Below the pieces are notes generated by a model, which worked only from the letters and a program-made list of their open reading frames with translations, was not told the DNA's origin and searched no databases. Position numbers and translations under genes: made by a program. This document shows positions 1,768 through 3,988 of a stretch of DNA of 9,315 nt, piece after piece. The DNA comes from a virus (lineage: Duplodnaviria; Heunggongvirae; Uroviricota; Caudoviricetes): IMG/VR virus record IMGVR_UViG_2778261463_000017, positions 1 through 9,315 of that record; one strand, written 5' to 3'. Each line of letters starts with the position of its first letter. Position 1 is the first letter of the stretch.

Positions 1768-1974
1768 ATGGAAGTAATCAGAAAAATTCTTACCCGTCAG
1801 GAAGTAAAAAATATTCTGCGCATCAAGGCAGACAGTTCGCTACAGGACATGATCAACGCCGGAAAATTCCCGAAAGGCTTCAAAATCGGTCTGCGCCGTG
1901 TTGGCTGGTATGAAGATGAGGTGCAGGCCTGGTTGAAAGAACGCGAGGAAGAAGCGCGCGGAACGGCTGCGTAA
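1768..1974 (+). CDS. alpA: AlpA-family prophage transcriptional regulator (small HTH protein)
   Basis: 68-aa protein MEVIRKILTRQEVKNILRIKADSSLQDMINAGKFPKGFKIGLRRVGWYEDEVQAWL, a classic AlpA/phage-AlpA signature; GAGGT Shine-Dalgarno 8 nt upstream. Confidence 0.85.
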   Translation: MEVIRKILTRQEVKNILRIKADSSLQDMINAGKFPKGFKIGLRRVGWYEDEVQAWLKEREEEARGTAA

Positions 1975-2121
1975 TGGTGTGAGGTGTAACGCAATGAACA
2001 TAACAAAAAGCGCCCCGTTGCCGGAGCGCCCTTGTGAACAATTAACCTGCTGCGAAAAAAATGGATCAGTGCAGGGGAATTATATCAACCGTGTGACGAA
2101 GCGCCACAATTGCCGGATAAC

Positions 2122-2153
2122 AGGCAAAACAAAGGCCACCTGCTACGGTGGCC
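2122..2153 (-). terminator. candidate rho-independent terminator for the reverse-strand repressor gene
   Basis: Perfect 7-bp stem GGCCACC / GGTGGCC (2134-2140, 2147-2153) with a 6-nt loop; on the minus strand it is followed by TTTGTTTTG. Lies about 100 bp downstream of the stop at 2257. Confidence 0.4.
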
Positions 2154-2256
2154 ATTCGACACAAGCTACACGTTATCCCCAACGCAAGAGAGATGATTAC
2201 TATGCCGTGATTACATCCGGTTGGCAATGTGATCAGTGTGCTGGCTTGCTGGTGGG

Positions 2257-2562
2257 CTATTCCTGCTCTTTGGCTTTGCGCCGCTGGAGTTCTTCACGCG
2301 CAACGGCGACGAGTTGCCCGATCTCCTCGGCAGCTTTGACACCGATTTTTTCCACCTGCGCCAGTGCATCGAGCGAAGAAACCAGGGGATTTTCTCCTCT
2401 TCCTTCTGCCTGGCGGCGGGCGATCTCACCACGCATGGCGGTTACTATGAATCCGGCGTTGCTTTCGCCGTCCAGTTTTACGGATTCCATGCCATCAAAA
2501 GCATCATGTGGGATACGAATTGAAATCTGTTTTGATTTGTCGTTGATAGTGTTTTTTGCCAT
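2257..2562 (-). CDS. putative ribbon-helix-helix DNA-binding protein (candidate island repressor)
   Basis: 101 aa from MAKNTINDK...; the segment KQISIRIPHDAFDGMESVKL...NAGFIVTAMRGEIARR fits a beta-strand/helix/helix RHH pattern, followed by a charged helical tail. GGAGA Shine-Dalgarno 6 nt before this ATG. The longer 2257-2601 start is rejected because it has no spacing to the SD. Confidence 0.55.
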   Translation of the reverse strand: MAKNTINDKSKQISIRIPHDAFDGMESVKLDGESNAGFIVTAMRGEIARRQAEGRGENPLVSSLDALAQVEKIGVKAAEEIGQLVAVAREELQRRKAKEQE

Positions 2563-2584
2563 GTGCATTCTCCTAAACAAAATA

Positions 2585-2660
2585 TGTGATTCAGTATACA
2601 CAAAAAAGAATCACAAAAAATACTTGACCTGTGATTCAGTTGAATTTAATTTAAATCACA
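2585..2660. promoter_or_regulatory. divergent promoter/operator region between RHH gene and icd-like gene
   Basis: Two inverted-repeat pairs TGTGATTCAG...GAATCACA (2585-2615) and TGTGATTCAG...AAATCACA (2630-2660); a -35-like TTGACC (2624-2629) with TAATTT 17 bp downstream, overlapped by the second palindrome. Confidence 0.5.
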
Positions 2661-2685
2661 CCTCAGTAAGAGGATGTAAACGACA

Positions 2686-2719
2686 ACGCCCCGAACTGTT
2701 TGCGGCAGTAGCGGGGCGT
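2686..2719 (+). other. stable hairpin in the icd leader (candidate structured regulatory RNA element)
   Basis: 8-bp GC-rich stem ACGCCCCG (2686-2693) / CGGGGCGT (2712-2719) with an 18-nt loop containing an inner CTG/CAG stem; no T-run follows, so it is unlikely to be a terminator. Confidence 0.3.
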
Positions 2720-2755
2720 CTAACCACCAACGATAGCGAAAGTATCGAGGTAGCT

Positions 2756-2950
2756 ATGAGAAATCATACCACACACCCGCAAGGGCGGGACTCGCACAAC
2801 CTGAATAAATACATCTGGCGTTTTATCGCCCTGAGCACGGCACAACCGCGCGTGATTCACATCGTGGCCACCAGCGAACAGGAAGCGCGTCAGCAATCTC
2901 CTGATGGCTGCGTGATGGTATTGGCCTCCAGATTTCATCATCGCTGTTTG
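2756..2950 (+). CDS. Icd-like (host cell division inhibitor-like) small protein; 3' end undefined because the frame has no stop until 3988
   Basis: ATG at 2756 with GAGG Shine-Dalgarno; MRNHTTHPQGRDSHNLNKYIWRFIALSTAQPRVIHIVATSEQEARQQ resembles Icd-like proteins of P4-like elements as I remember them. Downstream of ~2950 the same frame becomes Cys/Arg/Ser/Phe-rich and un-protein-like, so the end given here is approximate, not a stop codon. Confidence 0.45.
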
Positions 2951-3132
2951 TTTTTTGTCTGTCTCTCCTCGGGGTATGGGGTTGTGCCGTTCCAGCGTAT
3001 GCGGGGCCGTTCACTGATGAAGCGCTCAAGCGGGAAATTATCGGATGGCGCGGGGGGCCGTACCCGTCGTTCCCGCCTCCGCTGGCGTACCACGCTGGCT
3101 TCGGTAATTTCCCCTGATTCGTTTATTTTCAT
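2938..3132 (-). CDS. small Arg/Pro-rich protein, paralogue A of a three-member mini-gene family
   Basis: 64 aa (MKINESGEITEASVVRQRRRERRVRPPAPSDNFPLERFISERPRIRW...); strong GGAGGT Shine-Dalgarno 8 nt upstream of ATG; shares the RRERR...PP.P...FPLE.FI..R.R pattern with the ORF at 3376-3546. Confidence 0.3.
   Translation of the reverse strand: MKINESGEITEASVVRQRRRERRVRPPAPSDNFPLERFISERPRIRWNGTTPYPEERQTKNKQR
3014..3033. repeat. dispersed direct repeat copy A (CTGATGAAGCGCTCAAGCGG)
   Basis: One of three copies of CTGATGAAN(3)CNNNAGCGG; 17/20 identical to copy C and 15/20 to copy B. Confidence 0.5.
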
Positions 3133-3175
3133 AAAGAGTTACCTCCGTGCTCATCTGCTCTGGCGTTTTCTGTTT

Positions 3176-3195
3176 CTGATGAAGACTTACAGCGG
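3176..3195. repeat. dispersed direct repeat copy B (CTGATGAAGACTTACAGCGG)
   Basis: 162 bp downstream of copy A (a multiple of 3); the most diverged copy, with a stop in the minus-strand reading. Confidence 0.45.
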
Positions 3196-3207
3196 TAGCG
3201 GCGTATC

Positions 3208-3324
3208 TTATTTTAAGATTTGGTTTAATTTCTCGTGTCTGGCTTTAATGACGGCGCGTAATAATATCTGTCGCTGCTTTGTGTTTACGTCCAGAACTGT
3301 GGGGGATAATATGGATTTGTTCAT
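3208..3324 (-). CDS. short ORF (38 aa), possibly a truncated paralogue B of the mini-gene family
   Basis: MNKSILSPTVLDVNTKQRQILLRAVIKARHEKLNQILK; AGGTGA Shine-Dalgarno 5 nt upstream of ATG; stops just before repeat copy B. Uses AT-rich codons (ATA, TTA), which weakens the call. Confidence 0.2.
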   Translation of the reverse strand: MNKSILSPTVLDVNTKQRQILLRAVIKARHEKLNQILK

Positions 3325-3375
3325 GGTGCTCACCTGTAATGCATTGCGTCGTGATGCCTCATATCACGGCGGCGG

Positions 3376-3546
3376 TTATCGTTTTGTTCGGATTCGTCCC
3401 CTGATGAAATCCTCAAGCGGAAAATGTTCAGGGCGAGGTAATTCAGGAGGGACAGGGTTATTACTCATGCGCTCACGTTCCCTTGCGGCGCGTGCAGCAT
3501 TCAGCTTTTGCAGGAGCACATCAAACGGCACCCCCTTATCATTCAT
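3376..3546 (-). CDS. small Arg/Pro-rich protein, paralogue C of the mini-gene family
   Basis: 56 aa (MNDKGVPFDVLLQKLNAARAARERERMSNNPVPPELPRPEHFPLEDFIRGRIRTKR); G-rich Shine-Dalgarno-like run before ATG; C-terminal half aligns with the ORF at 2938-3132. Confidence 0.3.
   Translation of the reverse strand: MNDKGVPFDVLLQKLNAARAARERERMSNNPVPPELPRPEHFPLEDFIRGRIRTKR
3401..3420. repeat. dispersed direct repeat copy C (CTGATGAAATCCTCAAGCGG)
   Basis: 225 bp downstream of copy B (a multiple of 3); differs from copy A at three adjacent positions only. Confidence 0.5.
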
Positions 3547-3700
3547 GGTCCCCCCTGTATATCCGTTGTTAACTGATGGTTACAGGTGCATTTTTCGCAC
3601 AAACTATTTAATCAACACATCCGACCACATTATCAGAGAGCCGGAATATACAGGGGCAATAATCCCGCATTTGCTGGCCTACGCACAGCTTACCGCTGAT

Positions 3701-3988
3701 ATGGCACTGAATGAGGCCAAAGCCATCCTGATTGCTGATTGTGAATATGGGGTTATGCGTGATGATCGTTTTAATGCCCTGAAACAGGAATTTGATGGCA
3801 CACCGGAAGATACAGATATTGCGCTGTTATGTGTTGCTGACATGGTAAAAGCTGCATGTTTTTTACTGGAAACCGCCGAACATTCAGGAACGGGTAGCGA
3901 TATTCTCAATATTGCGTCGGACTATGCTGAATATGTGGCAGAGGCGCGTTACAGAAGAAAATTCCAGGAGGTGGTTAGCCATGAATAA
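3701..3988 (+). CDS. hypothetical acidic protein, first gene of the replication operon (true start may be upstream)
   Basis: 95 aa (MALNEAKAILIADCEYGVMRDDRFNALKQEFDGTPEDTDIALLCVADMVKAACFLLETAEHSG...) with protein-like composition, unlike the upstream part of the same frame. No convincing Shine-Dalgarno at 3701; the stop overlaps the next gene's start. Confidence 0.5.
   Translation: MALNEAKAILIADCEYGVMRDDRFNALKQEFDGTPEDTDIALLCVADMVKAACFLLETAEHSGTGSDILNIASDYAEYVAEARYRRKFQEVVSHE

Follow-up and report, generated by a model that had tools for sequence, protein, structure and literature searches.

A predicted ribbon-helix-helix repressor/operator switch embedded in a P4-type nested frame of a phage-inducible chromosomal island

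Phage-inducible chromosomal islands (PICIs) of Gram-negative bacteria are widespread, and their regulation has been described as activator-only: the founding paper reports unidirectional transcription and induction via helper-activated expression of AlpA, names AlpA as the activator and leaves the global repressor unclear, no repressor being known, and later papers repeat this account (PMC6092414). How such islands stay silent, and what AlpA does to switch them on, are the questions raised by a short divergent region in one of them. The DNA analyzed here (the window, meaning the whole 9.3-kb stretch) is an EcCICFT073-type PICI whose right half matches the right end of EcCICFT073 from E. coli CFT073; in the closest complete genome the island site is tRNA-Pro, beside yejM, and a 601-bp region is matched in 1308/5426 complete E. 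coli genomes. Its gene order begins with a tyrosine integrase (1-1242) and alpA (1768..1974, plus strand, 68 aa; Pfam Phage_AlpA, E 5.6e-09), the activator gene of Gram-negative PICIs (PMC6092414). It continues with a minus-strand gene for a 101-aa protein (2257..2562), called the RHH gene below after the predicted ribbon-helix-helix (RHH) fold of its product, an icd-like gene (2756..2956, plus strand) that is the first gene of a DUF4222/RepA-helicase/SSB operon (DUF4222, RepA/AAA_25 helicase, SSB), and PerC, after which come lambda-E-type capsid and D-type decoration genes. The first-pass annotation had set the RHH gene opposite to the icd-like gene, and this holds: the minus-strand ORF (2562..2257) and the ATG at 2756 bound the control region between them exactly.

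Related loci were drawn from E. coli genomes, GTDB genomes and assemblies (30 loci) and from IMG/VR (80 loci), and 55 distinct control regions from more than 10 genera were compared. Because these loci share descent, locus counts overstate independence and the statistics given below are not phylogenetically independent.

The two inverted-repeat pairs described for the control region in the first-pass annotation are real. The first, O1 (2585-2615, 31 bp), has arms TGTGATTC (2585-2592) and GAATCACA (2608-2615) with 15 nt between them, and the second, O2 (2630-2660, 31 bp), has arms TGTGATTC (2630-2637) and AAATCACA (2653-2660), within which the core arms TGTGATT (2630-2636) and AATCACA (2654-2660) are separated by 17 nt. 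An 11-nt direct repeat, TGTGATTCAGT, is found at 2585 and again 45 bp away at 2630, and the 76 bp from 2585 to 2660 hold all three exact TGTGATTC half-sites as well as a fourth arm with one mismatch. The pattern TGTGATT-N15-17-AATCACA has two matches in the 9315-bp window versus none in 200 dinucleotide-preserving shuffles (0/200), which argues against chance. The four half-sites alternate in orientation and follow one another at intervals of ~22-24 bp, about two turns of the helix, with arms at about +23, +46, +68, and +91 from the RHH ATG, and these positions are kept in loci from E. coli, Serratia, Edwardsiella, and Klebsiella despite diverged flanks. In loci with 59-aa RHH alleles, every operator site is itself a small palindrome. 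Two Edwardsiella loci (L016 and L017) have a fifth exact TGTGATTC half-site in the leader, at +113 from the RHH ATG, so that left arms recur there every 45 bp (+23, +68, +113). A near-palindrome inside the icd-like gene, CGTGATTCACA (2851-2861), amounts to two overlapping one-mismatch half-sites; it is treated as chance and was rejected as a further operator because it is not conserved in loci of the same operator type.

The elements of the promoter claimed for the icd-like gene, TTGACC-17-TAATTT, lie where they had been placed. This predicted rightward promoter, P_R (2624..2652, plus strand), comprises a -35 TTGACC (2624-2629), a 17-nt spacer, and a -10 TAATTT (2647-2652) that has 3/6 consensus matches and falls below the promoter-scan threshold. 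The -35 position is conserved, TTGACN occurring at +62 from the RHH ATG in 20/26 related loci, with 3-4/6 matches at the -10. On the opposite strand, TATACT (2593..2598) is likely the -10 of the RHH gene's own promoter; it lies at +31 from the RHH ATG (31-36 nt upstream), its position is conserved across loci, and it has 5-6/6 matches in most of them. No good -35 was found for this leftward promoter, and the SD of the RHH gene (AGGAG) is the reverse complement of 2570-2574. The claim that the repeats overlap the rightward promoter is correct for O2, which extends from the first base after the -35 to the predicted +1 and fills the spacer and -10, but not for O1, which lies upstream of P_R and brackets the leftward -10 instead.

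The candidate for a protein acting at these sites is the product of the RHH gene. It is a YlcI/YnfO-family protein, with residues 9-50 scoring 65.1 bits against YlcI_YnfO_N (NCBIfam NF041551; curated cut-off 30), and it matches PHROGs 6522 and 949, both of 'unknown function'. Substitutions between homologues are 2.8-fold commoner at codon position 3, and the gene is therefore genuinely coding. An AF2 model (pLDDT 82) predicts an extended N-terminus (strand at about residues 12-18) followed by helices at 19-28, 35-53, and 59-100, that is, an N-terminal domain of about 45 residues with the beta-alpha-alpha topology of an RHH fold and a long C-terminal helix. Sequence comparisons give far less: no Pfam family matches the 101-aa protein at E<=0.01, nothing relevant is found in Pfam at E<=10 for 19 N-terminal domains, a PDB profile search for an RHH match returned phi29 p16.7 alone (E about 1), and no curated RHH family or solved RHH protein is matched by sequence. 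An hhalign comparison places QISIRIP on QFNLRWP of Arc in the canonical register with a probability of 27%, and the Arc-like strand signature x-h-x-h-R-h-P-x-E/D-h occurs in the same register. We accept the RHH designation of the first-pass annotation as a prediction of fold and not as sequence-based family membership, because the AF2 model fits while the Pfam, PDB, and hhalign matches are absent or weak. 

The protein is highly conserved except in residues 2-15, where variation falls mostly in the four residues before an invariant R16-x-P18, and some alleles are just 59 aa long and are without the C-terminal helix. This helix may link dimers, as in Mnt of phage P22, which combines an RHH domain with a C-terminal helical extension. 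The C-terminal half (residues 55-101; 2257-2400) weakly matches the helix-hairpin-helix of Hef (PDB 1x2i, E 0.005), a reading not adopted here, AF2 predicting one continuous helix. No match to the RHH protein was obtained by tblastn against GenBank phages, and literature searches for an RHH or YlcI regulator in PICIs found neither the protein nor the operators described.

The relationship between the variable strand residues and the operator arms is the evidence that most directly connects the protein with the repeats. When the loci are classed by residues 12-15 of the predicted DNA-reading strand, each class among the 55 distinct regions has its own arm sequence while the arm positions are kept. 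Strand QISI goes with TGTGATTC (E. coli, Serratia, Edwardsiella, Klebsiella), LTTV and LFTV with GTGTGTTTCA (E. coli, Xenorhabdus, Photorhabdus), SLTA with TGTAAGAC (E. coli, Enterobacter), QLNA with GGTATTCA (L020/L021), QINA with GGGATTCA (L014), MTTI with TGTATATCAC (L023 and IMG/VR loci), ALKA with GTGGGCCAC (the EcCICFT073 allele), and TVAA with GTGTTCAACAC (L005, L028), and several xKNx classes have GTGTGTA/TGCACAC-type sites. LTTV and LFTV, which share an operator, differ at one alternate residue that is predicted to face inward. Arm identity is 84% between loci that agree in all four strand residues, versus 66% elsewhere, and 40% between loci with different strand residues, versus 41% elsewhere; in the most diverged same-strand pairs, arm identity is 83-98% and flank identity 39-58%. 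This table of strand residues and operators is a ready-made data set on the RHH recognition code.

The same comparison bears on whether the repeats could be sites of a different factor, be it AlpA, CRP, or a repressor from a helper phage, or else reflect chance or the structure of AT-rich DNA. AlpA is known to activate island genes, and TGTGA and TCACA are CRP half-site pentamers; however, the spacing from TGTGA to TCACA is 21 nt in both repeats and not the 6 nt of TGTGA-N6-TCACA, and the arms change completely between alleles, following the RHH strand and not AlpA. Two loci (L004 and L020) with AlpA proteins 96-99% identical have different arms, and three others (L015, L016, and L018) have the same arms with AlpA identity of at most 37% or none detectable. 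CRP and AlpA were thus rejected as binders, and the stability of the region folded as single-stranded DNA is unremarkable (z -1.7), so that this group of explanations seems scarcely credible. The arms are also independent of the downstream gene, which differs among QISI loci. Since the arms track the strand of the 101-aa protein, and neither AlpA nor the downstream gene, there is strong indirect evidence from sequence comparison that this protein would bind the arm sites and repress both promoters.

The positions of the operators suggest what such binding would do. With the 101-aa protein on the four half-sites that form the two 31-bp inverted repeats, occupancy of O2 would shut off P_R, and hence the icd-like(kil)-DUF4222-RepA helicase-SSB operon, because O2 sits between the -35 and +1; occupancy of O1 would limit synthesis of the protein itself (negative autoregulation), because O1 brackets the -10 and +1 of its own leftward promoter. 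The strand motifs fall into at least 13 classes, each with arm sequences to match, a diversity that argues for an immunity-type switch for the island. It has to be asked whether the RHH gene could be a self-contained accessory module (antitoxin-like, or serving superinfection exclusion) with operators only for itself and the icd operon controlled elsewhere. In every allele class, O2 lies between the -35 and +1 of P_R, ~70-100 bp from the RHH start, a placement unnecessary for autoregulation alone that makes the accessory-module explanation very unlikely, and no partner gene is present in the window between 2257 and the terminator.

The switch is also present, unnoticed, in the textbook island EcCICFT073, which has a 59-aa YlcI/YnfO allele (C_RS30120) and an icd-like gene (C_RS30125) with late-added locus tags. 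The protein is a previously uncharacterized candidate regulator. The layout of this control region (E. coli CFT073, NC_004431 1380242-1381052; L027) is as in the window, with GTGGGCCAC sites, and a second small minus-strand gene there likewise has a late-added locus tag. Different RHH alleles are seen to precede identical downstream modules (as in L028), which means that RHH gene and operators are swapped together as one cassette. The recombination boundary of these cassettes with the modules that follow them is at ~2714, inside the leader, and in many E. coli genomes the match extends only from ~2714 onwards, at 94-99% identity.

The leader in which this boundary falls (2686..2750, plus strand, downstream of O2) is conserved and structured. 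It contains hairpin 2 (2686-2719) and hairpin 3 (2731-2747), separated by a near-invariant UCUAACCA(CC) at 2719-2728, and hairpin 3 abuts the SD GAGG (2747-2750). Across 21 loci, 9/15 pairs change on both sides, a value reached by 0/500 shuffles, the covariation score is 0.236 versus at most 0.082 in slid controls, and the z-score of the fold MFE is -3.0. No significant Rfam family was found in the whole window or in the 241-nt region, and the leader's weak Rfam resemblance (17 bits) to the R1162 antisense RNA probably arose by chance. That the leader serves in attenuation or in translational control of kil would be a guess.

The control region is not simply intergenic, as it lies in a conserved stop-free frame that joins alpA to the icd-like gene. 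This eta-like long frame (1994..3988, plus strand; ORF 1979..3988) has alpA as its upstream neighbor and begins with SD (GAGG)-N9-ATG at 1994, 20 nt past the alpA stop, the frame being open from 1937 inside the 3' end of alpA. It runs antisense to the whole RHH gene and then across the operators, promoters, and leader, in phase with the ATG at 2756. In the window the long frame has 0 stops, versus 4 and 2 in the other two frames over the antisense RHH stretch and 7 and 6 over the control region. In-phase stops are absent in 20/25 distinct loci, and the other two frames contain 112 and 92 stops (antisense RHH) and 139 and 141 stops (control region). The lengths of the control region in those loci (187, 190, 193, 196, 199, 202, 208, and 211 nt) are all 1 mod 3. 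Over its first 165 nt the frame is open in 24/26 loci, for which shuffles give a chance of about 2% per locus, and it is open in 53/55 distinct control regions when IMG/VR is included. Where it fails, it often does so late: in L003, L008, and L023 the stop comes ~15-20 nt short of the downstream ATG, after the operators, hairpin 2, and most of the leader have been crossed, and in L013 it comes ~40 nt short of that ATG, within the leader. The frame is lost in L007 and in L025, the latter lying outside the 25-locus stop count. In most loci the frame starts with an SD-ATG that either follows closely on the stop codon of the gene before it or overlaps that codon. The int-alpA RNA (RF02996) was detected in L005 and L015. 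The open frame inside the RHH gene is weaker evidence than that in the control region, because with the RHH protein fixed the antisense frame is stop-free by chance in 15-45% of synonymous resamplings and the two frames have the wobble position in common. The upstream part of the long frame matches no recognizable protein family. We infer that the long frame is translated.

At its downstream end the long frame enters a gene of recognizable ancestry. The icd-like gene scores 59.2 bits against NCBIfam NF033153, which gives 76.1 bits on P4 Kil, and phrog_1743 is matched by both proteins alike; on these profile matches, the icd-like gene is a homologue of phage P4 kil. In the window the icd-like ORF is without the usual stop after ~67 codons and stays open for ~344 codons more, to 3988, and in L028 the stretch corresponding to 2756-3988 is annotated by PGAP as a 477-aa 'Icd-like protein'. 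The translation of ~2950-3650 looks non-protein-like, and the last ~95 aa of the 2756-3988 frame (from 'MALNEAK...') resemble a real protein. The stretch 2938-3546 holds three copies of a 20-mer like CTGATGAAGCGCTCAAGCGG (3014, 3176, 3401), and the small minus-strand ORFs 2938-3132 and 3376-3546 have a common 'FPLE(R/D)FI' motif and no PHROG match; these ORFs weakly resemble the CFT073 57-aa minus-strand protein adjoining the RHH gene (pairwise E 0.03-0.08).

The terminators between alpA and the RHH gene provide a further indication of how the nested frame might be used. The terminator scan found the intrinsic terminator of the RHH gene (2124..2153, stem 2153-2134) and a second one (stem 2033-2006), each acting on the minus strand only, and both of these strong terminators (1998-2153) lie inside the plus-strand long frame. 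Their strand specificity supports, and the arrangement as a whole suggests, an AlpA-driven, translated read-through that bypasses the switch. The helper phage would turn on alpA, and AlpA-autoactivated transcription from the alpA promoter would read onward, with ribosomes translating the long frame through the stretch antisense to the RHH gene, past the operators and the structured leader, and on into kil. With such read-through the replication operon would be expressed without recourse to the repressed promoter, and the transcription would interfere or collide with convergent RHH transcription. The same scan gave two weak plus-strand terminator-like hairpins within the antisense RHH stretch, and the RHH terminator (2124..2153) gives a sub-threshold Rfam match to isrD (22 bits).

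This route has to be set against a master repressor of the Stl type, the role proposed in the first-pass annotation, in which the RHH protein alone would silence the island and be inactivated by direct binding of a helper protein. As in the Stl/Rpr systems of Gram-positive PICIs (SaPIs), the gene of the putative repressor is divergent from the excision/replication operon of the satellite. The operators cover the promoter of the operon, and the prototype EcCICFT073 has the gene too. However, Stl/Rpr are HTH proteins encoded in the same orientation as int and relieved by helper proteins, whereas the fold predicted here is RHH and int and alpA lie on the other strand, and no helper partner is known. 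Published work also indicates that alpA is required for EcCICFT073 and EcCIEDL933 to be induced and transferred and that over-expression of AlpA alone induces the island without a helper, and the conserved frame running from alpA across the switch is a route that would need no antirepressor. Antirepression of the Stl type is thus not favored and is considered unlikely. The repressor/operator part of the earlier proposal is retained, as the arms co-vary with the strand and overlap both divergent promoters, but the Stl/Rpr layout is not that of this locus.

The reading preferred here joins an RHH repressor acting on four half-sites at both promoters with a P4 eta/kil-type frame that would allow an AlpA-driven bypass, and we give this combination a probability of roughly 0.6. 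The broader proposition that the YlcI/YnfO RHH cassette is the missing immunity or master repressor of Gram-negative PICIs, that its types constitute 'immunity groups', and that AlpA-driven translated read-through overcomes it, is put forward tentatively and, with all its parts taken together, remains rather doubtful. If it is true, AlpA induces the islands via read-through of an eta-like frame and not by acting at the operon promoter, the RHH specificity types define island 'immunity groups', and the control region is at once protein-coding sequence, two promoters, and four operators. An allele-specific repressor/operator cassette is a concrete candidate for how Gram-negative PICIs stay silent, and it may explain how co-resident islands avoid cross-talk. 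The question of how AlpA switches the islands on becomes a set of simple mutational tests, and the switch is directly testable in the prototype EcCICFT073.

Among known systems, the immI region of phage P1 (c4 RNA - icd - ant, employing the C4 antisense RNA) resembles this locus in having an Icd-family small gene first in an immunity-controlled operon, and differs in that here there is no C4 and no ant gene downstream. In the immI region of phage P22, the RHH repressors Mnt and Arc act at the divergent promoters Pant and Pmnt, and the island likewise has a small predicted RHH repressor divergent from the promoter it would repress, with operators overlapping both promoters; the 101-aa protein is also like Mnt in combining a predicted RHH domain with a C-terminal helical extension. 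Unlike in P22, the half-sites are ~23 bp apart rather than ~11 bp, no significant sequence relationship to Arc exists (hhalign 27%, no Pfam Arc match), and the switch would control a replication operon and not an antirepressor and sits inside an overlapping frame.

The closest parallel is with phage P4, in which vis is followed, with an overlap at its end, by eta (214 aa), and the last 65 codons of eta are kil. In both P4 and the island, an AlpA/Vis homologue is followed directly by a long ORF whose last ~65 codons form a separately translated Kil/Icd-like gene, a promoter and an immunity determinant lie inside that ORF, and replication (primase/helicase) genes come downstream. Translation of eta in P4 takes place solely on transcripts from the upstream late promoter and prevents termination, and transcripts from the internal promoter are subject to immunity (PMC10111431, summarizing Forti et al. 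1999); translation-dependent antitermination is thus demonstrated in P4, whereas for the island it would be expected by analogy. Immunity in P4 is exerted by RNA, unlike in the island, where the determinant would be an opposite-strand protein gene with its own operators. Rfam detects C4 (74.9 bits) and isrK (60.8 bits) in P4, and neither in the window at E<=1 nor in the 241-nt stretch at E<=10. The idea that the RHH cassette merely stands in for the P4 CI RNA was dropped, since two loci, L022 (1780-1965) and L025 (1011-1897), carry C4 and isrK inside an ash-family first gene downstream of the RHH switch, so that the cassette is a further layer and does not just take the place of the RNA. Through the kil homology and the nested frame, classical PICIs are linked with control of the P4 type, and the switch described here is best regarded as an RHH variant lying within a nested gene like that of P4, for which the repressor/operator reading is well supported indirectly.
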